Notes: generated by a model not told the origin, from the sequence alone. 53,535 bases of DNA from Fistulifera solaris (GCA_030295235.1 AP026134.1:1302001-1355535), one strand, 5' to 3'; counted from the first letter of the stretch, positions 7,605 through 28,603 are shown. Program-made: numbers and translations.

Positions 7605-8297
7605 TTACCAGGCTCGCTGACCTTGGGACGCCGCTACGTAGACTGGCTCGGGCATAGGAACTCCCTGCGGTTCAGAGCCTTTAGTTTGCGATTGAGGGCC
7701 TTTGTAGGGCAAGAAGTTGGGACCTTTCAACTTGTTTTGACTCTCTTGCTTCGACGAAGCCGAAAGAGCATCCAAGTAACTCAGATACATGGCAGCTGCT
7801 TCCGCCTTTGACTCGATTGGTTCTCCTTGCGCAGGAGGCAAGCTAGCAAACACTTCTTGTTTACGGCGTTCCGCAATCGAGGGTGTCCCGATGAGCCAGT
7901 CATCTCCTCTTTTGTGAATGACAGGTGCATACGTTCCGATCTGAACAGTCTCCAGTACGTCGGCAGGTAGCAACCATGTCGGAGGTTTGTAGGGAGAATC
8001 GGCCATAGCCAAAAGCCGCAACATGTTGGTAACGGCGATGGAAGGATAAATTCGAGGAGGGCCGTCGTGCGTTCGACGTCCATCTTTATCGGATCGGCCG
8101 ATTTTGTGAGAGGTAATAACATCGGCGGGATAGAAAGAAGGATTCTTGGAAGATCTCTCATAGTCGAAATTGTCTCCTACTTTGAGGAATTCATGTAGCG
8201 CGAACGATTTCTGCGACGATCTGATTTCCTGATTCATAAATGCAGCAACGCTGCTCAGAGACGACACGGCGAACGCGGTGAAAAGAAGTCGGAACAT
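7605..8297 (-). CDS. Orphan putative plastid-targeted protein (AA|F) with PADV, SYLDAL and KGPNFLPYKGPQ motifs
   Basis: MFRLLFTAFAVSSLSSVAA|FMNQ from ATG 8297; intact ORF to 7605. Confidence 0.75.
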   Translation of the reverse strand: MFRLLFTAFAVSSLSSVAAFMNQEIRSSQKSFALHEFLKVGDNFDYERSSKNPSFYPADVITSHKIGRSDKDGRRTHDGPPRIYPSIAVTNMLRLLAMADSPYKPPTWLLPADVLETVQIGTYAPVIHKRGDDWLIGTPSIAERRKQEVFASLPPAQGEPIESKAEAAAMYLSYLDALSASSKQESQNKLKGPNFLPYKGPQSQTKGSEPQGVPMPEPVYVAASQGQRAW

Positions 8298-8935: not shown

Positions 8936-11164
8936 TCATTGCCGATCCTGCAAGAGTAATTCTTTCAGAGTAAACAGGGCCATCTCTCGAACCTTTGTTG
9001 ATGTTAACTTCTTTTTTTCTGTCTCTTCTTCTCCACTATCTGCTGTTTTGACTATTGACAGACCGATATCTTGTGTTTCGCTTGCGTCCATCTGTTCGCA
9101 CGTATCCGACGGTTCGCCAAGGTCGTTGCTTGAACTGTCAGCATCTTCAACGGCACTTTCAGTGGGTTCAGCCTCAGTGACTCCGAAAAGTATGTCCAAA
9201 AGTTTGTCTGTTGCAGGTGCGGGATTTGCACTCTTTCCGTTGGAGGGACTTGTCACATCATCAACCGTGCCTTCCCCGTTGTGACCCTCCCCATCGATGA
9301 ATGGTGTTCCGTCTACCCCATTTAGGTTAGCAAGAACAGAAGAAGGATCGGCAAGATATTGACTGACCGTTTCGTCCGTCAACTGATCGGAACCATCGGG
9401 GCTCCCAGTAAACAAGTACTGCAGAAGCTCCTTAGTTGATGATTTGGCATTTATGGGAGCCATGGATCCAATAGATGTCTCATCCCAAACGTTCGAAGAG
9501 CCTTGGGTTTCAAAAGCAAATTGGATCTTGTTCGCATGGTCGGATTCTGATACTAAACTTGGTTGAGCAACATTAGAAGTAGAATCGAGTTGGCCTTCCG
9601 GGTCGCCTTGATTATGGTCTCCGTTCAGGCGGACGCCTGAATTTAAATGCAGATGCTCGGAAATCGTTTCGTCGTCGGAATTCGTTAGCAATTTAGTTTG
9701 ATCAGTTTCCGTTGAAATCGCTTCTGCCTTGTCATCGAACGAAGCCAGGTCATGTACTCCATTAACGCTGGTTGGTTCCATCGTTTCCGATTCCACTACG
9801 GAACTTTCTACTACCGAAGGCTCAGAAAACGACAACTCTGTTATTTGAAGATCCGCACCTTTCTCAACCAGGTCTGTCTCTGCTAGTGGTGAACTCGTTA
9901 TTGTCTCAGAGCCGACCGCAGCGTTCTCCGATTCCAATGAAACTGGCTCTAACAAAGAGTCATTTGTCACTGCAACCACCAACGTATCTTCAACATCCGT
10001 TACTGATGAAATTGCTTCGTTTTCCACGTATCTAGGGCTTTCTCCGTCAATCTGGGCCGCCTCTTGAGCCGCATCAGAGCTGAGAGCGACAGAACCTTCA
10101 GTTATTTCCATTGGTGCTTGGTCAGAAATCATGTCCATTTGCGCTGTTTCTAGATCAATAGACTCTCCTACTTCACCAGTGACTGCAATAGATGTCGAAC
10201 GAAGACCTTGCTCATCATTTTCATGCAATAAATTGTCCTCGCTCGACTCCAGCAATGTGCTGTCCAATATCGCTTCAGTCTCGTCATAATTAAAAACCGA
10301 TGACTCTTCCTCTTGATGTGTACCGTTGACACCATTGATAGGCGGTTCTTCTTTAGCATCCTCTATGACTTGTGTTTCCGTGTTCTCCGTCGATGGCTTT
10401 CGAAATCCCTGCCGATTGCGTGCCTCTTCTTGCTCATTCATGCGATCACGCCAAAACTGTACCTGAATATCACCGACTACAGGTTGCTTCGAAAATGAGT
10501 TCCTTGTCGAAACCGCAGAGGCAGATACCGAGTCTCGTTGTTCCGAGAGAGTTTCCGTCGTAACAACGTCGCCTGCGTGTTCCTCGAGTTCAGCTTGGTC
10601 GCTTGCTGCCGACTCGGAACTTGTTTCCGGTAACTCTTGAGTGTTGTCTTCGCTTATGTTTGCATGAAAGATGGAATTACGTGCTTGTTCCGTTGAAAAC
10701 GCGGGTCGAAACCCCTTTTTATTCCGCTCTTCTTCTTGCGCCGTCATGCGGTCACGCCAAAATAGAATATTACGATCATCTACCGAGGTAATGGGCACTG
10801 AAGGACGCTGCGGAGCCGAAGGTCGAAACGCACTAGGATGAGTCGTTGGGGCGGGAGGCCTGGAAACACTCGTCGCAGCTGAAATTAAAAACAGGTCATC
10901 CTGATCGCTCGGCAAAGATGATACGGCAGTCGTATCTTCAGGAGGAGTTGGTGGAGCTGTAGACTGCAAAGGCTGCACGATAAACGGTTGTGCAGTAGTA
11001 GGTTCCCAAGAAGGCTTTTTGAATACATCTGCGGGCACGAGATAATCTGGATCGTTTACAGCAGACATTTTTACGGATCGAGCTGACATTCGATGCGGAC
11101 GAATAACCCACGCATCTGTTGCAGTGAACGCAAAGAATGATACTGTTACAAATCGAATAATCAT
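8936..11164 (-). CDS. Orphan acidic, disordered putative plastid-targeted protein (DA|W)
   Basis: MIIRFVTVSFFAFTATDA|WVIRPHRMSAR from ATG 11164; YLVPADVF; two FWRDRMxxQEExRNxxGFR copies; very rich in E/S/D. Confidence 0.78.
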   Translation of the reverse strand: MIIRFVTVSFFAFTATDAWVIRPHRMSARSVKMSAVNDPDYLVPADVFKKPSWEPTTAQPFIVQPLQSTAPPTPPEDTTAVSSLPSDQDDLFLISAATSVSRPPAPTTHPSAFRPSAPQRPSVPITSVDDRNILFWRDRMTAQEEERNKKGFRPAFSTEQARNSIFHANISEDNTQELPETSSESAASDQAELEEHAGDVVTTETLSEQRDSVSASAVSTRNSFSKQPVVGDIQVQFWRDRMNEQEEARNRQGFRKPSTENTETQVIEDAKEEPPINGVNGTHQEEESSVFNYDETEAILDSTLLESSEDNLLHENDEQGLRSTSIAVTGEVGESIDLETAQMDMISDQAPMEITEGSVALSSDAAQEAAQIDGESPRYVENEAISSVTDVEDTLVVAVTNDSLLEPVSLESENAAVGSETITSSPLAETDLVEKGADLQITELSFSEPSVVESSVVESETMEPTSVNGVHDLASFDDKAEAISTETDQTKLLTNSDDETISEHLHLNSGVRLNGDHNQGDPEGQLDSTSNVAQPSLVSESDHANKIQFAFETQGSSNVWDETSIGSMAPINAKSSTKELLQYLFTGSPDGSDQLTDETVSQYLADPSSVLANLNGVDGTPFIDGEGHNGEGTVDDVTSPSNGKSANPAPATDKLLDILFGVTEAEPTESAVEDADSSSNDLGEPSDTCEQMDASETQDIGLSIVKTADSGEEETEKKKLTSTKVREMALFTLKELLLQDRQ

Positions 11165-11357: not shown

Positions 11358-11576
11358 TCCACTCCCATGGATGACTTCAGATGCGGGACCCAGGTGAGCG
11401 AAATAAGCAGGCCTGATGAGTGATCATTGATCAGACGTTGCTAGTTCCTACCAGGTAGGCAAGCAAATAATGTTTGATGTGGATTACCAGGTACCCTCTT
11501 TAGATAGTCCGCGAACCTAATTGCATCGACCTATAAAATCTATTAATAGGCATACACTTATGATTCTCCCATGCCC

Positions 11577-12335
11577 TTAGTTTCTTCCTTTTCGAGATGG
11601 GGATGAATTGCTTTTCTTCCGACGACTCGATTTTGCTTTTGTAGATGTGTCCTTGGTATCCACGGATTGCTTTTTAGATTTCCGGTGTGCATCCCTTCTT
11701 GCCGCTTCATCCCAGCGAAGCATTTCTTCTTTTGAAAAGCTTCTTTCTCTGCCAGACGCTCGAGACTCTTTTGTTCAACGCGTCGAGCTGCTTCGGCCCA
11801 TCGATCCATTTCGGCTTGTTGAAATGCAACTTGCTCGGGAGTTAGTTCACGTGGTTTCGCTGTAGGAGTCACTGCAGCTACTGGTAGATAATCGACCGGG
11901 TAACTCACTGGAGGGGGAAATGGTTTGACGCCAACCACGAACGCCGACTTCGTCAGCCGGATGACCTCGTGTGACTGTTGATGCTGGTACTACTACTCGT
12001 GGTGTCGCAGGGACGGGTGGCGAAATAATCTTTTCTCGTTCCAGTGATGCAGAAGGGTCAATGAGTTCTCCACGTGCCGTAAAAGGTTCTGTTGTCGATT
12101 GCGTGCTGTCTGGTGAAGAAGAGCGACTAGCTGCTGTGGGATTACTGTCATAATTTGAATAAGTGATGCCGCTTACTGGTTCACCTGTGCGACTAATTAC
12201 ATCGGCTGGCAGGAAGTGTGAATCGGAATGGAAGATACGAGTGCTCCGCCGATTCGTTAATTGATTGGAGATAATCCAGGCGCTTGTTGTTGGCAGACAA
12301 CAGATCGCTGTGAGTGATGCCGATCGAACTTTCAT
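11577..12335 (-). CDS. Orphan putative plastid-targeted protein (SA|W); joined across 2 frameshifts
   Basis: MKVRSASLTAICCLPTTSA|WIISN..FLPADVISR. A shift at ~11935 leads into GVKPFPPP..EMDRWAEAARR; a shift at ~11730 gives EEMLRWDEAARRDAHRK, ending at TAA 11577. Confidence 0.6.
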
Positions 12336-13431
12336 TTCTGTTCTACTTCTTGGTCAGATGATTCGCTAACAATTTCTTATTCTTTTCAATGTTTCGTCCC
12401 TTATTGCATCGATTGCAGGAGATAACAAGAAGTAGATGTTATATTCTTGAGATGTTTGCCCTCTTCAGTTCAAGTCACTGTTTTTCTGCGGTTGCCTTTC
12501 CTTCTTGGCATTTTCATTTTTTTGCAGACGTCAGTGAGCACCTTGTTCGATAGTAGATACCCTTCCGGGACTGGATTTCCGGTGAGGAGTCGTCGTCGTC
12601 GTCGTCGTCGGGATACACTAATTATGAAAGGAGTCCTAGGTCCTCGCAACGCTGTTGCTTGACATTCCATTATCACTTTTTTAACAGTAACATTCAACAT
12701 CTCGAACTTGAAACGTCATGAGATTAAAGATGCAATGCGTCAAATGGCTACGTAAGATCTACGTTGGTCTAGTAGGGAAATTCATCGACGGAGGAGGACC
12801 CGGACATTCTTAAGTTTCGTCTTCATCAAGTTTCAGTTCTTCTTGCCACAATTGCCTTCGCAACTGTCCCTGATCTATTTACTTTCCATCAAACAGAAGT
12901 ACTCAACGCCAAATCAAACTTCAACATAAGAAGGTTGAAAGGTGCAACGCTTGAAATGTCTACGTGATTTTGACGTAGCCGCCGTAGGAAATAAATCGAT
13001 TTAGGATTTACCCGGATATGGCTTGTGTTTCACCTAGTCGAGGATTTTTAGGAACGGGTCAAAGAAACAACGGTACCGCGTACCTGTTAAAATGTACTAA
13101 GCAATGTTTTGCGTTAAGGTCGGGTTGAATATTTGTTCGCAGCACGCTATGTTATACTTCCTACTAAACGACTAAATAATCTGTATGCACGAACACGTCA
13201 AAGTATGGGGCATCTTTTTCATTCCTATGGTGACAATCATAAGTAACATATATTGATTCGGCTACTTAGTCATTTCCAATGGCAACAACCGAGAGAGTAC
13301 ATAGAGTTTGCCTTGTCTTTGTTCTTGCTAGTGGCCGAGGATGCCTGTGCCCATTACCAATCGTATCAACTACATACACTCTTTGTCATTCGCGTCACGG
13401 AAATTGTGTGACAGTATTTTCCATAATCATT

Positions 13432-14592
13432 TTATTCCAGCTTCTCACCATCGGAAGGTGTCTCATCGCTCCATTCTAATCCATTGAGATCAACGCCTTC
13501 GTCATCTGGCCGATGGACGAAAAAGTCGCCTTTCTTTGCTCTCCGAAGTGCATCACGTTTCGCAGCTTCCTCCCACCGTGCAAGCTCGCCGTCAATAAAA
13601 CTTTTTTTGTCCGACAACGGTTCATTTTCAAGGGCACCTTCGTTCTTAACCTCTGTCTCGCCGTCTCGCATCGACGCATTCAGTTCACTGTCAATTTCAA
13701 TTACCTCATTTTCGATAATTTCATTTTTATTTTTAGCTGTGTCTTCTGATGTTGTTGCCGAACCGCTGTCATTAATGGTCGAAAACGTTTCTTGTTGCTG
13801 GAAGAGTTCCTTTTTGGCCTGTTCGACTTGCAAATTCCTCTGCGATTTTTCTTCCGCGAACTCGGCAATATTACCGTGCAGAATATGCTGCCCGGCATCT
13901 AAAAATGACATCATTTGGTGCTCCGGATACGGAAGAGGAATGTCTGGTATCGTAGTTATGCTTGTCGTCGATACTATCGGTAAAGAATCAACCTCGAGGA
14001 CCGGAGTGTCTGGCTCTTTGGGGAGTGTCGGTGGTTGTAGTTGAGGTGTGAAAGACGGCATAATGGCTTCTGGCGGCGAAGTGCTGGGTGGAAGGGACTC
14101 GCCGGATGAAGTGGGATAGTACGGAATGCGAATTTTTGTGGATACGTCAGGATGCATCACGTTGGAATTAGAAGGCACCGGCGAAAATGATGACAACGCC
14201 GGCTTCGGAGATAGATTGCTAGAGGGTGAAGACCATGAAGGACGCCCCGGTGAAGGAGACGAAAGCGCTGACTTGCGAGATAGCATGGACCCCGGTTCAT
14301 TGTAGTACTGATTTGTTGAATATTGTTGTGACGATGAAGAAGGCACTTTTTCTGGTTTGAGTGTTGAAGACCAGGACGCCGGATAGTAGCCCGAACGATG
14401 CGTTCTAGAAAGATTCTCGAGCCATTGCGGACTACCCAAGATTTCCGGCGCCAAATCTGAGTAAAGGTCATCTTGCGCTCCCGATGCACCGAACTGTCGT
14501 GCCGTTGACGAACGTCGACTATGAGAATGCGTCACCCATGCTTCTGACACAGAAAGCAGGCATACAGAGATTGCAGAAGCTCGCAAGACCAT
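13432..14592 (-). CDS. Orphan Ser/Pro-rich putative plastid-targeted protein (EA|W)
   Basis: MVLRASAISVCLLSVSEA|WVTHSHSRRSS; HPDVSTKIRI; ELARWEEAAKRDALRR; intact 386-aa ORF. Confidence 0.8.
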   Translation of the reverse strand: MVLRASAISVCLLSVSEAWVTHSHSRRSSTARQFGASGAQDDLYSDLAPEILGSPQWLENLSRTHRSGYYPASWSSTLKPEKVPSSSSQQYSTNQYYNEPGSMLSRKSALSSPSPGRPSWSSPSSNLSPKPALSSFSPVPSNSNVMHPDVSTKIRIPYYPTSSGESLPPSTSPPEAIMPSFTPQLQPPTLPKEPDTPVLEVDSLPIVSTTSITTIPDIPLPYPEHQMMSFLDAGQHILHGNIAEFAEEKSQRNLQVEQAKKELFQQQETFSTINDSGSATTSEDTAKNKNEIIENEVIEIDSELNASMRDGETEVKNEGALENEPLSDKKSFIDGELARWEEAAKRDALRRAKKGDFFVHRPDDEGVDLNGLEWSDETPSDGEKLE

Positions 14593-14943
14593 TGTTTTTC
14601 AGTTCCTAAGATAGCAGGAATAAACGTCGTTCTCAAGCGAATCGTACTGTGAACGAAGTGTCTTTCAATTTGCTGTGATAGAGGCGACAATGAAGACAAG
14701 ATGAGAGCGTTCCGATTTCTTCTGATTGCCAAAGATACCGTTCTTTCGATGTTGCACGAGTTTTCGAATCGAAACAAGTCAGGTTGCGAGAGATAAAGCT
14801 CGCCGAGCCAAGATCTCCGTTACAAACAATACGATAGATACACTTTTGTTCTGAAATCAACAGAAGCAAAGAAAAAAGGAAAGAGCCGCCGTTTTCCCTG
14901 CGTCCTTGCGCGCGCGCCATGTGCTCTCATGACAGCTGTTGTA

Positions 14944-15039
14944 TTACGTCATTGCCACGTCACATGCAATGGCTCGAGTAAGGACCAAAGAGAAGGAAGA
15001 GAGGGTGCGACTTGAACTTCACTGCCGAACTGCACGTCA
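14944..15039. promoter_or_regulatory. ACGTCA elements upstream of the gene starting at 14592
   Basis: TTACGTCAT at 14944, CCACGTCA at 14955, ACGTCA at 15034. Confidence 0.4.
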
Positions 15040-15507
15040 GGAGTCAGGACTCCTCCGGACGTAGACACCAAACAGTTCCTGATTAGTACAAGTACATTCT
15101 ACTATCCCATTTCTTCGAATTGGGTTGTGAGATTTCAGGCTACTGTGGCTATGGAGCTAGGGACGGGTATTAGTATTAGTTCCACCTGGGCTTGGTAAGT
15201 CTCTCCGACAATCGCATCTACCTAGATGGACCAAATGAAAAATACATAAAAGCAAATCAAAAAAGAATGTGGGGTATCTCGTTAGACTCTCTCCTGTCTT
15301 TCACGGCAGTTACAACGAAAAATTTATAGATACCATGCATTACCATTATACTGCTCAATGAATAATAAGAATAGTGATAATATAATTGCACGTTCCCATC
15401 TGAGAGACTGTTGTCGCTGTGATTCTTCGGAATCGATGTCAATCGCTGTCTTCGCAAGAAACTTGCAGAATATTGAAGCACAAGTTAATTGTAGAACAAA
15501 CCTCGTC

Positions 15508-18144
15508 TTATTCGTTCTTGCTTTCCTTGGCCTTTTTCTTCGCCAATTCAGCCAGCCCGTTGCCATCGTCGACGATTTCTGCGTCAATTATGCCGTTTAT
15601 TGACTTGCCCTTTAATAAAGCCTCTTTTTTCTTTTTGATCTCCTCTAACTTCGCCTTCTGCTTTTGAAGAGCTGCTTCGGCTTCTTTCTTTATTTCTGCT
15701 TCTTCGCGAGCTATTTCCGCCAAGATTGCGGCTTCTTTCTCGGCCGCTTCCTTCCTTATGCGCGCTTCTGCTTGAAGTCTTGCCGCCTCTTTCAAAGCAG
15801 TATCAATTTTATTTTTACTGTCATCTGTAACGCCCTCCGCCGTTTCCTTCGTTTCGGGTTCGTTGTCTGTCTTTTTCTGTTTCGCCTTTTCCGCCCAACG
15901 AGCTTGTTCTGCTAGTCGCTCTTCCTCAGCTTTGCGCGCTTCTTCTGCCCATCGAGCTTGTTCCGCTTTACGCGCTTCTTCGGCTTTCTTTGATTCTTTC
16001 AACCATCGAGCCTGTTCCGCTTGTCGAGCCTCTTCGGCTTTGCGAGATTCTTCTGCCCAACGAAGTTGCTCCGCTTGGCGGGCTTCCTCTGCTTTTCGGG
16101 CTTCTTCCAGCCAACGTGCATGTTCTGCTTTGCGTGCTTCTTCTGCCCAACGAGCTTGTTCAGCTATTCGATTCTCCTCTGCTTTCCGAGCCTCTTTTTC
16201 CATGCGGGCTATTTCTGCGAGACGGGCTTCTTCTGCTCTACGGGCCTGTTCGACAAGTCGCGCTTCTTCAGCTTTTCGTGCTTCTTCTGCTAAGCGGGCT
16301 TCCTCTGCTAGTCGTGCTTGCTCGGCAGTTTTCCGAGCCTCTTCGGCGAGTCGGGCGTCTTCGGCCAAACGAGCTACTTCTGATAGGCGAGCTTCCTCTG
16401 CTAAACGGGCCTGCATAATTCTGCGCTCTTCTTCAGCTTTTCTGGTCTCTTCCGCAAGTCGCATTTCCTCGGCGATACGAGCCTCCTCAGCCAAACGCGC
16501 TTGTTCAGCCAATCTTGCTTCTTCTGCTAACTGGGCTTCCTCTGCAAGTCGTGCTTGCTCCGCCAAACGAGCTTCTTCCGCTATACGTGCCTCTTCCGCC
16601 AATCGAGCTTCTTCCGCTTTACGCGCCTCTTCCGCCAATCGAGCTTCTTCCGCTTTACGCGCCTCTTCCGCCAATCGTGCTTCTTCCGCTTTACGTGCCT
16701 CTTCCGCTAAACGTGCTTCTTCCGCTAAACGTGCCTCTTCCGCCAATCGCGCTTCTTCCGCTAAACGTGCCTCTTCCGCCAATCGAGCTTCTTCCGCTTT
16801 ACGCGCCTCTTCCGCCAATCGTGCTTCTTCCGCTTTACGTGCCTCTTCCGCCAAACGTGCTTCTTCCGCTAAACGAGCTTCTTCGGCAATTTGTGCTTCC
16901 TCTGCTTTGCGAGCCTCTTCTGCGAGACGTGCTTCCTCGAGACGAAGTGCCTCTTCTTCTTTCCGCGCTTTCTCCACGAGTTGTCTTGCCTCCTGTTCTG
17001 CTTTCTGGAGCTCCTCGTACTGCTTCTGAGCAAGTTTCGCAGCTTCTATGGCCTTTAACGTAGCCTGGTGCGCCGCCTCAGCCGCTTCGGCAGCTTTTTT
17101 TGCAGCTTCCGCCTCCTTTGTGGATTTTGTACTAGCCAATTTTGCAGCCGCTGACATTTTTGACTGAATCGTCTCAGCACCATTTATCGACCCCTTGATG
17201 ATTTTGGAAGTAATTCGAATCTCGTCTTCGACATTCTTGCCAATGTAGTCATCGTACTGATCCGGGCTTGCAGCTGGCCATTTCCCGGTCCCCGTAGGCT
17301 TTGATGCAATCAAGGGCTTATTTCCCGGCATATCCGGTGCTCCCAAGGCCTCACTCCCCAACTGTCGTACCCAAGTTTGACGCGGAGCAGGTGGAGGCTG
17401 AACACGAATTTTGTTCATGACATCTGGTTGAATGTCATCTGCAGGGGTTGCTGTGGAATAAGACCAGCTAGACGTCCACACACTTTTTCCCATGTTTTTA
17501 CGACTCTCCATGTATTGTTCTCTAGCAGCTTCGGCAGCTGCATCACTGTCGAGTGCATCCGTGCCCAATTCGTTGACCCAGGTTTTCTTCCTAGGTTTTT
17601 CTTCAGCAATTCGAATACCTTTGGTGATATCCGTTCCAATTTCGTCGTCGTTGTGTGATTTTGTATGCCATGAGCTTGACCAAACCGTTTTTGGCTCTGT
17701 TTTCGTTCGAATCACACCTTGTTCGTCGACTTTATACGATTGTGTCGGTGTCGAGGGCGCAGGCTGATCAAACTTCCCTGGTACTTGTTGAGTGATGCGT
17801 ATTTTATTGAGAACTTCTGAGCTGAATTCATTATCAAAGGAGGAACTGGACGGCGTCGGTAGAGGCTTGATTGGCGCCCCATTCTTTGGCTTTGAGTTTT
17901 CTTCTGTACTCGAATCAATTCGAATACTCCTAAGATTCTCTTTACTAATGTAATCTTTATCATTTGAAGAGGCTGACCACGATGCTCTCGGCGATTCCTG
18001 ATGCAAAAGAGCACGCGTTAAAGGCTTTGTATTCGTCGGACGTTGCAGCGAAGCAGGAATAAAAGCAGCTGCTCCTGTGAAAGCTTGACTGGAAGCGAGT
18101 AGTGCAGCAACAACAGCAGCCGAGTATTTGAATGAAAGTCCCAT
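15508..18144 (-). CDS. Orphan putative plastid-targeted protein with N-terminal xDxxxxIRI repeats and a long (AEEAR[LK])n helix
   Basis: MGLSFKYSAAVVAALLASSQA|FTGAAA|FIP from ATG 18144; intact ORF. Confidence 0.82.
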   Translation of the reverse strand: MGLSFKYSAAVVAALLASSQAFTGAAAFIPASLQRPTNTKPLTRALLHQESPRASWSASSNDKDYISKENLRSIRIDSSTEENSKPKNGAPIKPLPTPSSSSFDNEFSSEVLNKIRITQQVPGKFDQPAPSTPTQSYKVDEQGVIRTKTEPKTVWSSSWHTKSHNDDEIGTDITKGIRIAEEKPRKKTWVNELGTDALDSDAAAEAAREQYMESRKNMGKSVWTSSWSYSTATPADDIQPDVMNKIRVQPPPAPRQTWVRQLGSEALGAPDMPGNKPLIASKPTGTGKWPAASPDQYDDYIGKNVEDEIRITSKIIKGSINGAETIQSKMSAAAKLASTKSTKEAEAAKKAAEAAEAAHQATLKAIEAAKLAQKQYEELQKAEQEARQLVEKARKEEEALRLEEARLAEEARKAEEAQIAEEARLAEEARLAEEARKAEEARLAEEARKAEEARLAEEARLAEEARLAEEARLAEEARLAEEARKAEEARLAEEARKAEEARLAEEARKAEEARLAEEARIAEEARLAEQARLAEEAQLAEEARLAEQARLAEEARIAEEMRLAEETRKAEEERRIMQARLAEEARLSEVARLAEDARLAEEARKTAEQARLAEEARLAEEARKAEEARLVEQARRAEEARLAEIARMEKEARKAEENRIAEQARWAEEARKAEHARWLEEARKAEEARQAEQLRWAEESRKAEEARQAEQARWLKESKKAEEARKAEQARWAEEARKAEEERLAEQARWAEKAKQKKTDNEPETKETAEGVTDDSKNKIDTALKEAARLQAEARIRKEAAEKEAAILAEIAREEAEIKKEAEAALQKQKAKLEEIKKKKEALLKGKSINGIIDAEIVDDGNGLAELAKKKAKESKNE
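15880..16960 (-). repeat. Coding 18-bp tandem repeat encoding AEEAR[L/K/I], shifting to AEQARW toward the C-terminus
   Basis: Tandem units such as gcctcttccgccaatcga / gcttcttccgctttacgc on the + strand. Confidence 0.92.
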
Positions 18145-18488
18145 TTTGCACTTGCTACGCTGTTTCTGCTTATTTGATCTTATGAATCTCAAAGAGAAGA
18201 GCAGCGTCAATTCCAATTATCGTAAAGTGATATTTATTTGCTTTAAAGCGGAACATCAACAACGTTCGGTGGTTGTGATGTTCGGGTGTCGCGGCGAGAA
18301 ATTTGAAGCTTGAAGCGAAGACAACCTTTACGCTGCGACATTGCGGTTCGCTGAATCCACGAAAAGGCTTGATTACATAGGAACTTTTCCTCTATCTATC
18401 CATGTATTATGGAAACTGTTACATTCCACAGATGCACTCTACTATCGACGCTGGTAGATAAATCATACTCTCTGCGAGATACTAATTA

Positions 18489-18500
18489 TGACGTACGTCA
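18489..18500. promoter_or_regulatory. 12-bp perfect palindrome TGACGTACGTCA (two inverted TGACGT half-sites)
   Basis: Seen directly in the divergent intergenic region between the 18144(-) gene and UBA3. Confidence 0.4.
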
Positions 18501-18618
18501 CTTCTTGGCTGTGTTTTACTCGTGACTTGACTCGTGACACAGTGATTAGTGAGTGAATAGTCCGTCTGTCGGACATTGCATGGGGCACGCATTTTTTGTT
18601 GGCCTTTTTTCGACAATA

Positions 18619-18709
18619 TGAAATATATGTGAATGAAAAGTGGAAAATTCAGTCGAATGTCAAGATTAGATTCTGACGATTAAAAAATTAGGAATAAAAT
18701 ATATATGTG
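18619..18709 (+). repeat. ~91-bp dispersed repeat, copy of 5634-5725 (putative retroelement 3' end)
   Basis: tgaaatatatgtgaatgaaaagtgg...ataaaatatatatgtg is identical to 5634-5725 except for one A in a poly-A run. Confidence 0.9.
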
Positions 18710-18886
18710 GAAAAATTTCGAACGCAAAAAAAAAATACTTTGTACTGTACCTGGTAAACCTTACAAGCAAAATTAAATAATGCTCCTCATTCCTATTGAA
18801 AACAACATAAGCATCATTATTCGTAGTTGCTTTGTATACCTTCTTGTTTTTTGCAAATTGCCTTACTATTATTTAAATATAAACAC

Positions 18887-20363
18887 ATGAGTGAAACTGG
18901 GATGGTGAAGCGCCCATTGGAATCGGATGATATGGTAAGAAGTGAAAGAATAAGATCGTGTATAAATTCTTGAAAGATGCTGCGTGACTTGTACTCAAAT
19001 GCATGAATAAGTTACCTTTTCTAACCTTCTTTACCTTCATTCTCGCAAATAAACATAATTTTAGATCATAGACTCGTTAGATCAACAGCAGCGCATTAGT
19101 TTAAACACTTTATTGTCCCGTCCTTCGGAATTTGGCAACGAAACGGGTCCTCTCGCGTGCGGTGAATTTGATCCTTCTATTTCTCTGCAATTGAAAAAGG
19201 TTCTTGTCGTCGGAGCAGGAGGTCTCGGGTGTGAAATACTCAAAGACTTGGCTCTCAGTAGCATTCCCTTGAATGTTCACGTCATTGATTTGGATACCAT
19301 TGACGTGACAAATTTGAATCGACAATTTTTGTTTCGTCAAAAAGACGTTGGAAAGAGTAAAGCAGAAACCGCAGCAGCTTTCATTCAACAGCGTTGTCCG
19401 TGGATTCAAGTCACGCCGCATGTTGGAAAGATTCAGGAGAAAAACTTGGATTTCTATCGACAATTCGATGTTGTTATTTCGGGTCTCGACAATATCGAAG
19501 CGCGACGTTGGTTGAATGCAACGATAGTAGGACTCGTTGATACCGATGACGACGGAGATATAGATCCATCTACCATTATTCCCATTGTGGATGGAGGTAC
19601 GGAAGGATTCAGTGGCCAAGCGCGTTTGATATTGCCCAAAATTACATCGTGTTTCGAATGCACGATCGACAGCTTCCCGCCGCCACGTGCATTTCCTCTT
19701 TGTACCATTGCGGAAACACCCCGACGGCCGGAACATTGCATTGCATATGCGTATATTCTACAGTTCCCGCGTGAATTTCCCGACACGGTCCTGGACAAGG
19801 ACAGTCCCGAACACTTGCAGTGGATTTATCAGCAAGCGGCAAAACGAGCCGAACACTACGGTATCACAGGTGTGACCTACATGATGACTATGGGTGTCGT
19901 CAAGAACATCATTCCTGCGGTCGCAAGTACCAACGCTATTATTGCTGCAGCATGTGTCAATGAAGCCATCAAGTACTTGACATTCTTTAGTCAAAACATG
20001 AACTCTTACATGATGTACATGGGAGCGCAGAGCATTCATTCGCACACATTTGCCTACGAGCCATCGGAAGACTGTCCTGTCTGCTCCGCTTCGGTCCGCA
20101 AAATGACAGTTCCTGCTAGCATCACATTGAATCAATTCATTCAAGCGCATCTCAAGGACAGCTCTTTGCGTATGTCGTCTCCCAGCTTGGTTTCGCCTAG
20201 TCAAACGTTGTATATGGCCAAGCCAGCGGCACTGGAATTGGCCACCCGACCTAATCTCGACAAGTTGCTGAGTACTCTCATTCAACCCGGCGAAGAAATC
20301 ACAGTCACCGATCCGACGTTGCATGGCATTCATGTTGGTCTGGCCATTACATTTGAAAACTAG
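18887..20363 (+). CDS. UBA3: NEDD8-activating enzyme E1 catalytic subunit, 2 exons (18887-18934, 19065-20363)
   Basis: VLVVGAGGLGCE, DLDTIDVTNLNRQFLFR, DGGTEGFSGQAR, catalytic FPLCTIAETPRRPEHC, VKNIIPAVASTNA. The GTAAGA...TTAG intron is in phase 0. Confidence 0.95.
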
Positions 20364-21715
20364 AAAGAATTTTTTTGCAATGTTAACTGTTGCAGTAGGA
20401 AGTTCGACAAACCATCTGCTGTTTACACACGGAGAATCGAATGTTGCCGGATGTACTTGTAGGATTGACGTTGAAATGTAACGAGTAGTTTTATACGCTA
20501 CATTCGGCTCTAAAGATTATAATAAAACTATGGAGAAGGAAAATTACCCGACGAAGCATCAAATGATCACGGAATGATGCCTGTCTGATACAATTTGGAA
20601 AAACCGTTGATTGTGTCACATTTTCACTTCACAGGATGCTTTTAAAACAAGTTGACAAAGTATAATATATGCCTCATAAAGTATCTGTTTGCAGGGGCAA
20701 AAGCGTGGCCTGTCAAAAGGAAAGCAGCACAGCTTTGTGAGAAGAAATAATGTATGCTTCGTAACTGTCCAGTGCGCGAATTGCCTTTATCAGACCAGGT
20801 ATATCGAAAAGCATGATTTGAATTTGTATACGGAACGGCGTGGAATCTAGAAAACAATGCATGTGCCTCGTCAAACGAGGTCTCCCTGTCTCTTTAGGCC
20901 TCTCACATCATACAATGTGATATAACCATTATATATTTCGTTCCAAATTGCTGAGACAAGCACCAAAATTCACTCTTACCGATCTCGCTCTGTTGCCATT
21001 ATCCTTGTCGCTTCACGTTCGCACTCGCACCTTGTCCAGCACCTCCAGAGGCATATTTCGAATCATCTCGATATCCTAACTGTTTGCGTAATTTTACCTT
21101 ACGCAGCTGAAACCATCTTCGCAAGTCTACTGCACTCGGGCTGCAGATTACTATACGCAAGGTTGTTAAGGTCACAATCAACAGCAGTGGCCACCAAGAT
21201 CCTTCGGAAGATGTCATTGTGGGGACACTCTTTGTATTCGAATGATCGAAATGATGATAGAGTTGTTTAATTTTACAGAATGAACAAAGGTACCTGGTAG
21301 CAGATTTTTCATTTCGTTGTTCATCATCATCAGCTTGACTTGCCTTATCGCTTCACAAAGGATAAGGGTGCAACGGGTTGTTCTACAGCGCGCGGCACGC
21401 CGACCCACGTCACCTCACTTTTCCTAAGTAAATTGTTATTACGTCGGTTTCAAGTTAAGGACTATAGAGACAGTTCTTGTGAGCGCGCCAGGCGGACACT
21501 AAAGCGACATGAGGTTACTAATTAAGAGATAGAAACGCGCCGACACCCCCACAAACCATTCATCGATCGTCGAGCGATGGTCGACACAAAATCAATGAGA
21601 AAAAACTTCGGCTCATCTCTGCTGTTTCTCATTCTCTGACCAACAAAGAAAGGAAAAGACGCGAAACAAGAACTGTACTTCCATTGTCAATCTTTCAACT
21701 GAAAAAATAGAAATA

Positions 21716-23142
21716 ATGTACATCCGAAAGTTCGCGTTCCTGCTTCTAAGTGCATCGAGCACCTCGGCTGCGTTTGTAGTGAGTCAACCCTCATTCGCCG
21801 ATTCTTCACGTACATCGACAGCACAAAACATGTACACCGATGGTTTCCTTATGCCCCAGGATGTCATCTCTTGGAGAGATCAGCAAACTACGTCGTGCTA
21901 TACTGCTCCTGTGTATGCCGATCCGAACAACTCTGTGCGTGCACCTCCCTCACCGTGGCCTGAATCGCGCGGCGATCGGCCAACCCCTGCATTCTTTGAA
22001 GAAACAAAGAAACAAGAGGACAGAAAGATCCAAATGTTTGACTATTGGATGCAACCTTCATCTTACATGGAAGAGCTGAAGAATTCTGGCCGAAGATCTG
22101 AGTCACAATGGACTCCAGATGCCACGCCTCCGTTCTTTACAACTGGTTCTTTGAGCACGCCCGAGTCTCGATGGGCACGTGTGGATCCGGGCTTTACGCA
22201 ATCCACTCCTTCGTTTAATCAGTACACATCTTCTTCTTACGCTACTGGGCGATGGACTTCGATTTATGAATCAGATGCGATGAAATACCGTCAGATGCAC
22301 AATTACATGGATGTTGAGGTTCAACAAGCACCTCAAGAGGCCGTCGTGCCCGTACCTGTCATTGAGGAAACACCTATCGCTTTGAATGAGCCGGATATTC
22401 GAGTGGAACAAACAACGGTAGAAGAAGTGTCTGCTTCAGTCAGCGAACCAGAACCAGTCTACCTTTCCGAGCCATTTCTGGAACAAATCACGGCACCGTG
22501 GAGCCAGCCAGATCCTGCGGTCGAGACGGGCGCTATTATTGAGGATATAGTAATGGAAATGCCCAGTTCAGAGCCAGTGAGTGCGATCTCAAAGGATCTT
22601 GCTGAAAAGATATCTGCGTACGAGAAAAAGATTGAAGAAATGCGAGAAGTCGAAGCGGAGTTTGTTGATATTTTGAACCAGTCACGCAGTCGCTACGTCA
22701 ATGACTTGAATGACATATTAACAGTCGAATCTAGTTCGGATTACGTCGAAGAAGAAGAGTCCACAAGTGAGACCCAAAAGAAGGCGCACAACTATCTAGC
22801 GGCGTGGAAGAGCATCCTGGTGCGGAGACTTCCGTTGATACGGCTGCCACAACCACTGCCAGCTACACCAATTCCATCGATGTCTTGGAAGCAGAACTAG
22901 GCGACGAGATCATGAGTACAATCCGTCGTGAATCTCATGTTAACACACCAGATGCTTACTTGAGCGCGGGGTCGAGCATGTACCAAAGCAGCTATTATGG
23001 TAGCCCAGGCCCGCAATATTCCACTGCAGGACGATCGGGTCCCAACGTTTACCATAATGCCTATCGAAACGCGGCACCCCATTACTCAAACGCGTACGAT
23101 CGCCCTCTGAGCGAACGAAATCACTGGGACCGTATCTATTAA
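21716..23142 (+). CDS. Orphan putative plastid-targeted protein (AA|F); one frameshift at ~22800
   Basis: MYIRKFAFLLLSASSTSAA|FVVSQP; FLMPQDVISW; ORF 21716-22900 overlaps ORF 22804-23142 (LGDEIMSTIRR, Tyr-rich tail). Confidence 0.7.
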
Positions 23143-23516
23143 GAGGTAGCTCGTTGCAACAGCATTTATCATCATCGCACCACGAACTCGGACGCAGGCT
23201 GCACCCCTTCTTCAATCTAGCCGTCTAGTATAATCATCAAAGCGCACGTATATATTGATTCCTGATCTACAAATACCAGTAACTTTATTAGTAGTTATAC
23301 CGGAGTAAGTTCTAGGAGATCTTTGGTGACACCGGTATAACGCGGGCCCTAAACGGGAAGCTCTGAATGTAACACAAAAAAGTTGCGACCTGTTGCGAGT
23401 GCGACGCATTGATGTATTTTTTATATTTTTATCGGATGCATTGAAGATTCTCATTTTCCATCGTACTACAACTAGCTCATTGTAACTCATCTTCTCCTTT
23501 TTCCACTTGACGAAAG

Positions 23517-25170
23517 ATGCGTGTTAGTTCACTAAGGTTTGTACTGACAGTGTTGTTAGCTCTTCCTTTTACAGGTTACGCTTGGATTTTACAAAGAACG
23601 ACCCCACGACAACGCGTTCTTTTTAACGGATCGACCATACAAAGATCCAGCAATCCTCGTCTTTCCGGCGAACTACTTCCTCAGGGAATTGTTGATTCAT
23701 CAACTGTGTATCGGGGTGGCCTCATTGAAAAGCCGCAATGGAACGGTGCTCCTGCTGAGGGATTTCGCGAAGCTCCGTCGATCCAAAACATGTATTATTC
23801 TCTTTCTACTCTTCCAGAAAAAGAGACAGAGGACGAACGCGATACAGTAGAGGCCAACAGACTTTCTGTGTCGAAAGAAAACAATATTCTTGACGATGGA
23901 AACGAGGTTCTTTCGGATACCAGCAAGCTAGATCACACTGATTCACTGTCGGAGAAAACAATCGAAGCTGCTTTGAGAGATCATTCTTTTGCAACAGAAA
24001 CAACAAATGATCAAAGCCTTAGCGATTCAGATGTTTTTCTCATCAAAGACGAAGATGACAGCCTTGAAAACAAGTTTGATGGCCATCAAGGTAATGAAGC
24101 TATTTTGACGGAAGAAAGTACGGAAAAGGATGAATTTTTTATGAAGATTCTCTGAAATTTATGAAAGCTTCATTCGAAGACACTGAGGGTGATTTATCAG
24201 CTATAGAGGACAGGCAAGATCATTTCGTTGCAAGAACGGAGGAAATGGAAGAAACAGAAGAGGATAGAGGGAATGACGAAAGTTTTTCAACGCCTGACGA
24301 AAGCGAAGCAATTGATGCAAGATTGGAAGACGGCGCTCTGCAGCTCTTATCTTTACAAGCTATGGCGGACAACGAGCTTGATGATGAGCTACCTACAAGC
24401 ATCGAAGAAGAAAATGCGATAACATCGGCTGAAAGTGATTTGTTGACAGAAGTCGAAGATGTAGATGGCACATTCCAGGAAGAAATAGTCGAAGATCTTG
24501 GAGCAGCACCGACGGAGGACGCAAAGAGCATGTGACCCTTAACGGCTCACATGACGCTATCGTAGAGAGCTCGACCAATGAATTGACACAGCCGGAGCTA
24601 AGTGCAGAACCGATGATTTTGGGGAATCATGTGTTTGAGCAGAGAGAACCGGCGCTTGACCAAAACGAGCAACCCGATGAAGAAACAACAACACTTAGTT
24701 TGAATGTTGATGTCCATCATGAAAGCGATCTGACATCTAGCAAATTCTTTGGTGAAAAGCAACAAAGAGCCGAATCTCGCCCAATTAGTGGCGCGTCAGC
24801 AATGTCGATTATTGAATCATCTACGATCATGCAATCCCTAGATTTCTGTCAAAGACCACTCAAGAGAATACCACTGTTCCAAAAGTTGAATGTTGACGCT
24901 GATAAGGAGTCAGCCTTTTTACGTGTCGTTCGGAGATATACCGAGGCGGACAAGCGCCGACGAAAACTAATCGAAGAACGACGAATGGCTGAGTCTATCA
25001 ACGGGCTGGAGGATGTAGACGCATTGGATGACTTGTTTAAGAAACTGACTTCGGTGGGTATTATTCCAAGGGTAAAAATGTATGGAAAACGTGTCACATT
25101 GGATGATGGGACCACGGCTATGGGGAAGAGACGCAAACTATGCATCGAACTAGAATGGGAAATGGATTGA
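23517..25170 (+). CDS. Orphan acidic putative plastid-targeted protein (YA|W); frameshifts at ~24135 and ~24530
   Basis: MRVSSLRFVLTVLLALPFTGYA|WILQR; three consecutive D/E-rich ORFs; the first break is in the T6 run 24135-24140; N- and C-terminal motifs are shared with the next gene. Confidence 0.65.
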
Positions 25171-25668
25171 ACATGGACGCTTTTGCTTCAAAACCCGCTC
25201 TTGTCTCATGTCACATATAGATGTAGCTAAACTACGTATAGTTGCTTGTAATTTATTGCTGAGACCTAATTGAAACTAGGCTGGCTGAGGAGATGCGATT
25301 TTTTTATGATAGTGTGACGGGCCGCCTCAAACGTTTGCGGCGTCGCACGTCGCACCGCAGTTAACACATTGAAGTTCAAATCCGCTATTGCAGACGTCAT
25401 TTTGGCTATGAATCTTTGTGTAGAAGACTGTCTTGCGACTGGTGCATTTCCGTTGACAACAGGATCTGGATTTTGATTGGATCGTGTCGTCGTTCGCACG
25501 GAGCATGGAGATATCATTCGAGAGGAGTTGACGACGTTTGCGACATCAACACAAAAAAAAAGCATCTTGAAAGATTTGGCGAGTGTTTTGTTTCATAATT
25601 GCTTCGTTTCGATTGCTTTCTGCGTCATTTGGATAAAGCATTCTTTTGTTTTCATTGAAGGCTTTAAA

Positions 25669-28366
25669 ATGAGCGTAATGTTTCTCCTGGTTTTGTTGAG
25701 TTGCTTCGCGGAGACACAAGGCGCCTGGGTCAGCAACAGTCCCTTTGTGTTGACAACAACTCAATCTGTACGATGCGCCTCTCAAGCATCTAATTACAAT
25801 GATCCTTACGCTCTTTCGGGTCAGATCTTACCTCAGGGTATCTTAGGAATGTTCCGTGAGCCATCAACGAACAAAATGCCGTGGAAAGGATCCGGTGCTG
25901 TAGGCTTTCAAGAACCAAACGCAATTCGAGAGATGTCTATTCTCGATAGATCTTCGCCATCTCAAGCGAAGGCTGAGACGACAAAGACCCAACAATTAAA
26001 ACTCTCTCAGGCATCGGAGCCTGGTCCGAAGAGGAGCGAACTAGTTCCTTTTGTTCAGAGACCGGATCCTAATTTCATGTCGCCGGATGTCATTGCATCT
26101 GTCAGGATCAACCAGCAGCAGTATCAGCTTCCTCAATCGATGAATGCGGTGTCTACCAAATCGTCGAGCCGAAAAGCGCGTGACGCTGCTATATTGCGAT
26201 TCGAATCGAGTTCTTGGGCTGCAGCAAATCTCAAATCAGAAAAGGCATCTGCGGATGTTCTCACTCGAGTCAATATCGGTATAGGTGCTCCTATTGCGGG
26301 CACGTCATCGGCCCGTGTCGAAAGTGCTACGAAAGGAACGCAAGAATGGACTATGGAAAAACGATCAAGCCGTCCAAAGATTCCGCGGATGTGCTGGTCA
26401 AAGTGCAGATTCATGATGACATGGTGAATGCACCCGTATCACAGCGTGTCCACGCTACTACTGCTACAAAACCAGATCAACCCGATGTAGTGGATAAGGT
26501 GAATATTAACGAAGGAAAAATAGCCAATAACTCGGGTGCTACGGCCAAACCAACCAAGGCATCCGCAGATGTGCAAACGCCTGTCAAAATTCATGAGGAT
26601 GTCAAGTTGAAGGAAGTTGCTGAGCCGACTGAAGAATCAGCCGATCTACAGTCGAAGGGAGCTACACCATCGTCAACACTACAAATCAATGGTGACAAAC
26701 AGGATATCGTCAAACCGTTCGATAAGAGTAACTCTCAGCCACCCATCGAGCCTATTCTCGTCGATAAGCTGCCGGAAAGTAATTACAAGAACGACTTGGA
26801 TGATATTATTACTGTTGATTCACAAGTAGACAGTTTTGTTACAAACACTCCGTCCACTACGCAGGAGGCAGCAGCAAAAGATTCATCGGATTTGAAAACA
26901 CCGGCCGAAAAGCAGGAAGCTACCTCTGTGCCGGTTGTACAGACACCAGAGGAGTCCAAAGAGTTGTTGAGCTCCGTTCAAATCACCAAGGATGCCAAGC
27001 CAGCTCGAAATCCGAAACCAGGCAAAAATCTGCAGATGTTCTTACATCTGTCAAGATTCATGAATCTGCCGATGTTTTGACGCCAGTTAAAATTCACGCT
27101 GAAAAGAAGCCGGTACAGGTTGCAACACCACTGAAAGACTCAGCTGATGTCCTAACTCCAGTTAAAATCCATTCAGACACGAAGCCGACTTCAACATTTG
27201 CCAAACCATCTAAGGAGTCTGCTGATGTTCTCACGCCGGTCAAAATTCACGACGATAAGCCACCTGCACAAACCGTTACTCCGGTGAAGAAGTCTGCCGA
27301 TGTTTTAACTTCGATTAAGATTCATTCAGAGAAAACACCGTCTCAAACGGCCAAACCCAGCAAGGCCTCTGCTGATGTTCAAACGCCTGTTAAAATTCAC
27401 GAAGATATGAAGCCGGTCCCAAGAGGAACGCCATTGAAGGACTCCGCTGATGTTCTAACTCCTGTAAAAATTCACGCAGAAGAGAAACCTGTCCGAGCAG
27501 CTGCGCCGGTAAAGAAATCAGCCGATGTACAAGCGTCTGTCAAGATTCACGCAGAAGACAAGCCGAGACAGCCTATTACACCATTGAAAGACTCCACCGA
27601 TATCCAAACGCCAGTCAAAATTCACGCAGAAGAGGAACCTCGACAGCCGTTTACACCACTGAAAGACTCCGCGGATGTTCTCACGCCCGTGAAAATTCAT
27701 GCAGACGAGAAAGCTAGACAATCTCCTACACCACTGAAAGACTCCGCCGATGTCCAAACGCCAATAAAAATTCATGCAGAGGAGAAACCTAGACAGCCTC
27801 TGACACCACTGAAAGACTCTGCCGATGTCCAAACGTCTGTCAAGATTCACGCAGCAGAGAAGCCGAGACAATCTCCTACACCATTGAAGGATTCCGCCGA
27901 TGTTCTTACGCCTGTTAAGATTCATGCTGAGACGGTATCGAAACCACTTGCTAAACCTTCCAAGGATTCGGCCGATGTTCAGACACCGGTAAAAATTCAT
28001 AGTGAGGACCATTCAGCGAGACGAGAAAGTCCGGCTGATTTGCAAACCGCGGCAACAGTGTCAACCAAATCGTCTGTAAAGCCGAAAGCGAATAACACAA
28101 TTGGCATCAAAAGTACGGCTCCTGTCACACCCGCTACGCAAGCATCATCGAGTAAATCCACAAAAATGGATGGTACTCTAGGAGGCATTCAGAGCGATTC
28201 TGTCACGGATTTGTTCGCGAGTCGCGTGATTGCAGATGTCATAACGAATGTTAAAATGTACGGAGACCGGATACCAGCGGCTAGCGCATCCGAGCCAAAG
28301 TCGCCGAGCGGTCTGAAATGGAAATCCGATTTTGATCCAAATCGATGGGCCCCGCTTAGTTATTAG
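25669..28366 (+). CDS. Orphan putative plastid-targeted repeat protein (GA|W) with 25-aa SADVxTPVKIH repeats; frameshifts at ~26350 and ~27010
   Basis: MSVMFLLVLLSCFAETQGA|WVSN from ATG 25669. The same SADV motif occurs in all three overlapping ORFs, supporting one gene. Confidence 0.72.
27030..28005 (+). repeat. Coding ~75-bp tandem repeat, 13-14 units (KDSADVLTPVKIHAEEKPRQPxTPL)
   Basis: 13 KIH units in ORF 27077-28366 plus one just upstream; gaaagactcc at 27661 and 27736 gives the 75-bp period. Confidence 0.92.
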
Positions 28367-28603
28367 GCTGACATAGTGCTGCTCCAAATATTGCTATACT
28401 AAAGGAGAGGAACTTAATGAATCATTCTGTTCTAGTTTCAGACTGAGGAATTCGTTAAATTTGGTATAATTAACCAACTATAATACTCCGTAGATCTTAC
28501 GCTCTTGACTGAAATGCAGTCGTGGCGTTTCGTATCATCGCGTTGTTCTTCATTCCGCATGCACCAGTTTATTGCTTCTCTTACTCCTTTTATTATCACT
28601 AAA

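Follow-up and report, generated by a model that had tools for sequence, protein, structure and literature searches.

A short motif at different copy numbers in a tandem cluster of putatively plastid-addressed proteins of Fistulifera solaris

In Chlamydomonas, the Rubisco-binding motif system described in the sections of Meyer et al. (2020, PMC7673724) considered here comprises EPYC1, SAGA1/2, RBMP1/2, and CSP41A. According to the same sections, the motif, [D/N]W[R/K]xx[L/I/V/A], takes a helical form and binds to RbcS; the many-copy disordered protein is the linker, the few-copy proteins are tethers or clients, and the differences in valency are discussed as functionally meaningful. In the diatom Phaeodactylum tricornutum, the portions of Oh et al. 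(2023, PMC10288592) used here describe PYCO1, which has repeats of ~80 amino acids (aa) and KWSPR/Q and GTGYNP stickers, the sticker being helical; they report neither homologues in other algae nor the sticker in other proteins. Criteria for further linkers, in the excerpts covered, are a largely disordered chain with repeated elements 20-120 residues apart (PMC11570498) and an isoelectric point (pI) >8 (10.64898/2026.07.16.738900). The FLIPPer outputs were examined there for repeated helical regions (PMC11570498), and the cases of CsLinker and SUPA1 were clinched by abundance and Rubisco co-purification (PMC11570498; 10.64898/2026.07.16.738900). Here, we analyzed a stretch of 53,535 nucleotides (nt) from Fistulifera solaris (GCA_030295235.1 AP026134.1:1302001-1355535; hereafter, the window), which is eukaryotic nuclear DNA of ~46% G+C. 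It contains, at 7.6-28.4 kb, eight paralogous genes that are mosaic, evolve fast, and form a tandem cluster; four of their products have a short motif in common. The cluster may bear on Rubisco packing and plastid sub-compartments in diatoms other than Phaeodactylum.

Like the Chlamydomonas system, as far as the cited sections go, the cluster combines one short motif with several otherwise unrelated-looking proteins that carry it at differing copy numbers. In contrast to the Chlamydomonas motif, the motif of the cluster lacks tryptophan, is predicted to be strand-prone, and is known from sequence alone; moreover, the genes that encode it are physically clustered paralogues. The pattern [D/N]W[R/K]xx[L/I/V/A] was found in none of the eight cluster proteins. 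The product of g25669, the gene richest in copies, resembles PYCO1 in being, as predicted, a basic, mostly disordered tandem-repeat protein of narrow lineage that is addressed to a diatom plastid, but its repeat is 25 aa long and its motif is common to at least four proteins. KWSP and GTGYNP were likewise found in none of the eight. Judged by their sequences, the cluster proteins are not PYCO1 homologues and the motif is not of the Chlamydomonas type. The shared-sticker logic would, by analogy, be that of the Chlamydomonas motif and of linkers such as PYCO1 and CsLinker.

The motif has the form (hydrophobic)-x-[PA]-D-V-x-x-x-[VI]-[KRNQ]-I. Six-frame scans placed its core, D-V-x-x-x-[VI]-[KRNQ]-I, once in g14592, five times in g18144, 19-20 times in g25669, and twice in g8300, a gene outside the list given in the preliminary description of the locus. 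The four genes and their copies are the following.

25669..28366, plus strand: g25669, 899 aa (identical to database protein P0005), presequence ...TQGA|W; dispersed copies, a conserved middle segment, an array, and a C-terminal variant
26080-26109, 26248-26277, 26382-26411, 26478-26507, and 26562-26591, plus strand: the five dispersed g25669 copies SPDVIASVRI, SADVLTRVNI, SADVLVKVQI, QPDVVDKVNI, and SADVQTPVKI
27029-27997, plus strand: tandem array of 14 copies in g25669, consensus xP[LS]K[D]SADV[LQ]TPVKIH plus a variable spacer, period 25 aa (75 nt)
28229-28258, plus strand: IADVITNVKM(YGDR), C-terminal variant of g25669, retained in database protein P0004 as AADVLSAVKLHGDR and echoed in g23517 as VGIIPRVKMYGKR (25054-25080)
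15508..18144, minus strand: g18144, 878 aa, presequence ...SSQA|F; five copies 41-69 aa apart in the predicted disordered N-terminal 330 aa
17917-17946, 17794-17823, and 17608-17637, minus strand: SKENLRSIRI, SSEVLNKIRI, and GTDITKGIRI of g18144, all in frame
17401-17430 and 17212-17241, minus strand: QPDVMNKIRV and GKNVEDEIRI of g18144, both in frame
13432..14592, minus strand: g14592, 386 aa, acidic, presequence ...SEA|W; one motif copy
14125-14154, minus strand: HPDVSTKIRI, the sole g14592 copy, from the six-frame scan
7605..8297, minus strand: g8300, 230 aa, basic, presequence ...SVAA|F; two full copies
8100-8132 and 7938-7970, minus strand: YPADVITSHKI and LPADVLETVQI, the two full copies of g8300

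The preliminary description had written the motif as [SP]-[AP]-D-V-x-x-x-[IV]-[KR]-I and had assigned very different copy numbers to neighboring proteins. The literal pattern [SP][AP]DV...[IV][KR]I has 15 sites, all of them inside g25669, and the copies in the neighbors g14592 and g18144 fit only a relaxed core. The copy numbers could be reproduced for g14592 (1), g18144 (5), and g25669 (19-20). They could not be reproduced for the gene at 21716, in which GDEIMSTIRR had been counted as a copy: this string lies at 22900-22929, in a frame different from that of the 21716 open reading frame (ORF), which stops at 22900. The claim that valency differs holds, the difference being ~20-fold among neighbors and ~2-fold between orthologues.

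The motif is in excess over chance. When the entire 53.5 kb were translated in six frames, the relaxed core [DE][VI]xxx[IV][KR][IV] matched 21 times, and 20 of these matches fell in g14592, g18144, and g25669; the remaining one (21022-21045, minus strand) sits in a 20-codon open stretch and was set aside as background. With a position matrix trained on the copies of P0005 and P0004 only, we scored 70,069 stop-free six-frame segments. Outside g25669, the five best were PADVITSHKIG and PADVLETVQIG, which are the two g8300 copies and took the top two places, QPDVMNKIRVQ of g18144, an antisense chance hit, and HPDVSTKIRIP of g14592; four of the five thus lie within g8300, g18144, and g14592, in the frame that is translated. 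GDEIMSTIRR matched the matrix poorly and scored under all entries of the top-30 list. When each protein was shuffled 2000 times, the observed matrix maximum was reached by 0 shuffles of g8300, 3 of g18144, and 4 of g14592. It was reached by 117/2000 shuffles of g23517 and by 514-1960/2000 of g12335, g21716, and g11167, and because shuffles attain the maximum so often, these four proteins are taken to lack a full copy; for g21716, this test refers to its 394-aa ORF. g18144 has five IR[IV] within its first 360 residues, a number equaled in 0/20000 shuffles.

The tandem array of g25669 carries a signature of selection. Tandem Repeats Finder gave a period of 75 nt with 75% matches for the array DNA. 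In 13 units aligned in the 25-aa register, the 11 core columns showed 360 synonymous versus 130 non-synonymous pairwise codon differences, while the 14 spacer columns showed 229 synonymous versus 657 non-synonymous ones. Within the core, S, D, K, I, and H do not vary in any of the 13 units, even though the codons in those columns account for up to 57 synonymous pair differences. Because differences in the core are mostly synonymous and those in the spacers mostly non-synonymous, the motif is a selected element and not the result of chance or of pure repeat inheritance. The codon pattern thus indicates that the motif is under purifying selection while spacers and copy number drift.

The orthologues agree with the expectation, voiced in the preliminary description, that the motif would be conserved among them: it is kept better than its surroundings. 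P0005 and P0004 are 44% identical overall, and their five dispersed copies are at aligned positions; within residues 92-312, 40/55 positions are identical in the cores versus 77/166 elsewhere. Similarly, MHPDV[SA]TKIRI is invariant in all three g14592 homologues (69-87% identity), with 10/11 positions identical in the motif versus 72/112 in the flanks. The number and placement of copies differ between P0005 and P0004. P0004 has eight strong copies and one medium copy, four of which stand ahead of the conserved middle segment, in a region without copies in P0005; after this segment, P0005 has its 14-unit array, and P0004 has only a decayed remnant.

All-against-all BLASTP revealed weak mosaic paralogy within the cluster. 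g23517 is like g25669 at both ends (E 5.6e-6 and 1e-3), g21716 is like g25669 in the NDL[ND]DI[IL]TV segment (3e-3), and weaker links join g12335, g14592, and g18144. Such mosaic paralogy, together with the birth of the array by tandem duplication, the decay of some P0004 copies, and the loss or original absence of the motif in four paralogues, could mean that the motif is a remnant of shared ancestry and repeat expansion that has no binding role and is either young or needed for solubility or chain structure. Yet the array units are only ~75% identical in DNA and nevertheless retain S/D/K/I/H in every one of the 13 units, and the motif outlasts its surroundings between orthologues. Invariant core residues amid synonymous codon differences point to purifying selection and not to youth, and we regard the relic explanation as rather unlikely. 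It does temper the notion of a common sticker put forward in the preliminary description: the array codons and the identity between orthologues support a real, selected peptide element, whereas part of its sharing is inheritance among diverged paralogues.

V2, [VI]6, and I8, the hydrophobic positions of the core, are all even-numbered and would face one way in an extended chain. This would agree with AlphaFold2 (AF2) models, run on single sequences and of low confidence, in which every VKIH of the P0005 array carries a strand of 5 residues, with a predicted local distance difference test (pLDDT) score of 50-63. The mean pLDDT in these models was 37.5 for P0005 and 42.5 for g8300. Of 13 protein pieces searched against Pfam, 11 had no family, and the remainder gave low-complexity matches (the charged helix of g18144) and one coiled-coil below the cutoff (a g23517 piece). 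A phmmer search of the PDB returned 0 matches at E<=1 for P0005 and for the g18144 N-terminus, the presence of a PYCO1 fragment in that copy of the PDB being unchecked. In the ESM Atlas, the best score for g8300 was 0.82, which is at chance level, and residues 20-330 of P0005 gave no usable match. The AF2 and Pfam results suggest that the cluster proteins are intrinsically disordered and belong to no known family.

We consider it an even call whether the motif is a selected, strand-prone short linear motif that would serve as a plastid module for multivalent interactions. Such a sticker could bind a folded plastid protein that its carriers have in common, in a hydrophobic groove or at the edge of a sheet, or it could pair with other copies of itself. 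The basic g25669 protein, with ~20 copies, would be the scaffold; g18144, with five copies and a long, charged, putatively rigid helix, would be a spaced tether; and g14592 and g8300, with 1-2 copies, would be recruited clients. It is from copy number alone that we infer this split into scaffold and clients.

Several observations weigh against the interaction module. The cluster genes are diverged paralogues, so the sharing of the motif is partly inheritance, and g11167, g12335, g21716, and g23517 lack a full copy that convinces. Of the g18144 copies, three of five score nothing with the g25669-trained matrix and fit only the consensus of g18144 itself (D-[DNK]-[DE]-[YFI]-x-x-[EDN]-[VIN]-x-x-x-I-R-[IV]; 17212..17946, minus strand); thus, what we treat as one motif may be two related ones. 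The P0004 copies after the middle segment have decayed, hence some copies are unprotected. The evidence for conservation comes from few, close sequences, and the AF2 models are single-sequence models of low confidence. Finally, the family is confined to a narrow lineage, with no relatives found beyond it: phmmer of P0004 against 1.84 billion representatives returned P0004 and P0005 only, and g14592 had three relatives including itself. A homologue search with residues 1-375 of g18144 gave no match in the near-length range of 482-1537 aa, and two alignment-based scans of metagenome contigs gave no relative.

The tether role proposed for g18144 draws on the part of the protein that follows its N-terminal copies. 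This part is an unbroken series of AEEAR[LK] hexads over ~400 residues (15775-16959, minus strand), of which 90% are E/A/R/K/L/Q, with one proline and one glycine. Leucine falls at every sixth residue, which leaves no heptad seam, and the last part has RW every 18 residues. The repeat may be a single stable charged helix that serves as a rigid spacer.

The other four genes of the cluster lack a full copy.

23517..25170, plus strand: g23517, 551 aa, an acidic paralogue of g25669, presequence ...GYA|W; only a weak C-terminal variant of the motif
21716..23142, plus strand: g21716, a 394-aa ORF (21716-22900) with presequence ...SAA|F and an overlapping ORF (22804-23142) in another frame, which holds GDEIMSTIRR
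11558..12335, minus strand: g12335, ~258 aa, presequence ...TSA|W; only the N-proximal half element FLPADVIS (12192-12215)
8936..11164, minus strand: g11167, 742 aa, very acidic, presequence ...TDA|W; only the N-proximal half element LVPADVF (11021-11041)

All eight cluster proteins begin with a hydrophobic stretch and a small-x-small site, as judged with a home-made pattern and by eye. The residue after this site, also read by eye, is phenylalanine in three genes and tryptophan in five, and the 20 residues past the site hold 3-7 serines and threonines and 0-2 acidic residues, with a net charge of 0 to +3, in 8/8. The putative signal peptides would suit secreted or cell-wall/biomineral disordered proteins as well, in which case the motif would serve extracellular assembly and not the plastid. 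Diatom wall proteins are typically serine-rich, repetitive, lineage-specific, and disordered, which we counted in favor of this explanation. However, an aromatic residue right after the small-x-small site, followed by a serine- and threonine-rich, non-acidic stretch, is present in all eight proteins. F or W after the cleavage site is the rule by which ASAFind, in the part of its description considered here (PMC4329603), calls diatom plastid proteins among secretory ones. The same feature tells nearby genes apart: a secretory-type ORF (4305, minus strand) is without the aromatic residue, while a cation-efflux-type gene at 40986 has ...IDA|F. A secreted, extracellular function is accordingly very unlikely in our estimate, and the eight proteins are predicted to be addressed to a complex, diatom-type plastid.

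Downstream of the signal-peptide site, by 24-36 residues, seven of the eight proteins carry [FLY]-[LV]-x-P-[AQE]-[DGI]-[VIL]. In g8300, it amounts to a complete copy of the motif, and in the others to the first half only. Thalassiosira transit peptides, in the excerpt of PMC3774753 that was covered, are 12-42 residues long and are cut after Leu(-2)-x(-1) and before Ala/Ser/Met, with acidic residues next. F-L-P|A-D-V fits this rule; thus, the half elements are read not as stickers but as belonging to homologous presequences with a processing site. We had also considered the N-proximal LP[AQ][DG][VI] as a half sticker in all eight proteins and discarded this in favor of a transit-peptide processing region, which is the more likely identity. 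The resemblance of LP|ADV to the diatom cleavage rule (PMC3774753, in that excerpt), the second g8300 copy, WLLP|ADV, which has the same form, and the great regularity of the array units raise the question of whether the motif as a whole is a processing or modification site, at which the array would be cleaved into 25-aa peptides or the Lys/His of VKIH would be modified. The array units themselves read K-D-S-A-D-V, without leucine at -2; the best-conserved half, V-K-I-H, lies downstream and is left unexplained by the cleavage rule; and single copies are found deep within g14592 and g18144. We consider a processing or modification site highly improbable.

A special case of the interaction module, toward which the preliminary description pointed, is that the motif is a sticker for Rubisco or for the pyrenoid shell, with g25669 as a candidate Rubisco linker and the others as pyrenoid clients or tethers. 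g25669 would qualify by disorder, by its 25-aa repeat period, and by its pI of 8.87 after the signal peptide; g18144 has a spacing of 41-69 aa but a pI of 5.3. By these published criteria, as far as the sources were covered, g25669 is like the FLIPPer-type candidates CsLinker and SUPA1 in being predicted disordered, with at least three repeats 20-120 residues apart and pI >8. Unlike in those candidates, its repeated element is modeled as a short strand and not as a helix. The g18144 spacing is near the ~60 aa expected of linkers in the portion of 10.1101/2023.10.26.564148 considered, where no repeat protein with the expected ~60-residue period is reported among Thalassiosira pyrenoid proteins. 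The literature covered names no diatom linker other than PYCO1 and describes it as not widely conserved. In addition, Trp-centered elements are also found in cluster proteins.

On the other side, none of the eight proteins contains KWSP, GTGYNP, or [DN]W[RK]xx[LIVA], and the low-confidence AF2 model renders the motif as short strands, as opposed to the helical motifs of EPYC1 and PYCO1. A spacing of 25 aa falls at the lower limit of what is considered able to bridge two holoenzymes, and five of the eight proteins are strongly acidic. Binding to Rubisco or to the pyrenoid shell is in our view unlikely. Somewhat less likely still is that the cluster as a whole forms the pyrenoid-building kit of a diatom lineage without PYCO1, in which g25669 would be the linker, g18144 a fixed-length tether, and g14592 and g8300 clients. 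If this were true, the motif would count as a third "pyrenoid address," of independent origin and without tryptophan, whose valency is tuned by rapid gain and loss of repeats. A search of the literature by topic, not by motif letters and with supplements excluded, found no paper describing the motif or the family.

Returning to the interaction module, the cluster offers a compact candidate set: one defined peptide of 11 residues, proteins with 1, 2, 5, and 20 copies as a natural series of valencies, and an orthologue pair of differing valency. Should the partner be other than Rubisco, the locus would still present a selected linear motif that spreads through a tandem family of predicted disordered organelle proteins.

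In the window, g25669 and g23517 are each split into three ORF pieces. We compared the window with contigs from three sequencing runs, X1, X2, and X3, whose kind was guessed, X2 and X3 being guessed as RNA. The X1 contigs cover every bin of the stretch and add one letter at each of four places, T behind 24134, A behind 24522, A behind 26356, and A behind 27023. The runs concerned (T7, A4, A6, and A6) are short by one letter in the window relative to the X1 contigs, and both g25669 breaks are at A5 runs in the window. With its two A's restored, g25669 translates exactly into the 899-aa P0005, and with the two X1 letters, g23517 becomes a single 551-aa ORF. The split of g25669 and g23517 is therefore an artifact of homopolymer deletions in the window, and both genes are intact and intron-less. 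Introns as the cause of the frame changes were rejected, given that X1 adds single homopolymer letters and P0005 reads straight through. These deletions are a warning that homopolymer errors of the assembly break real genes.

The frame-restoring letters behind 24134 and 26356 are also in X3 contigs and the one behind 24522 in an X2 contig; that behind 27023 was found in none of the X2/X3 contigs. At position 11913, a letter of the window is missing from an X3 contig and from one of the two X1 contigs, and its omission joins two ORF pieces of g12335. The single homopolymer of at least four letters within 22701-22900 is the A4 at 22776, where one extra A would join the ORF frames of g21716 and so add GDEIMSTIRR and a Tyr/Ser-rich tail to its ORF. 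Some intergenic bins are without X2/X3 cover, from which nothing is concluded. X2/X3 contigs, of the kind guessed as RNA, lie on g14592, g18144, and g21716. This placement fits transcription, although it is no proof of it.

Among the X1 contigs over 11500-28600, 181 are at least 99% alike and 95 are at 90-99% (45 at 95-99% and 50 at 90-95%). Substitutions are numerous across the cluster genes, as they would be with two diverged haplotypes or with a second, closely similar copy.

Four cluster proteins share another element, a Trp-centered charged helix motif. It reads ELARWEEAAKR in g14592 (13555-13587, minus strand) and EMDRWAEAARR at the C terminus of g12335 (11780-11812, minus strand); in g18144, it occurs five times as AEQARWAEEARK (residues 665-745), and in g11167 twice as FWRDRM.EQEE (residues 136 and 238). 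Ser-Trp-Ser strings also recur, as ASWSS and PSWSS in g14592, as ASWSA, VWSSSW, and VWTSSW in g18144, and as SSSWAA in g25669, where the string is retained in P0004. Tryptophan is found within the last 14 residues of g8300, g14592, g23517, and g25669, as well as of the out-of-frame tail downstream of g21716 (22804-23142), and the C-terminal end of g25669, KWKSDFDPNRWAP, is identical in P0004. NDL[DN]DI[IL]TV is common to g25669 (26790-26816, plus strand), P0004, and g21716 (22700-22726, plus strand); in g25669, it lies within the best-conserved middle segment (DIVKPFDKSN...).

Outside the family, a UBA3-like ORF (19113-20363) is an unrelated gene in the middle of the cluster. Just upstream of it, an X2 contig jumps over 130 nt bounded by GT..AG (18934-19063, plus strand), which is likely an intron of the UBA3-like gene. 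Two further ORFs have similar starts to those of the cluster: that at 3068-3376 on the minus strand begins like a signal peptide (...SVGA|W) and changes frame downstream, and that from 40986 on the plus strand has ...IDA|F and a His-rich stretch, followed in another frame by a cation-efflux-like membrane domain. Both probably encode ordinary plastid proteins.

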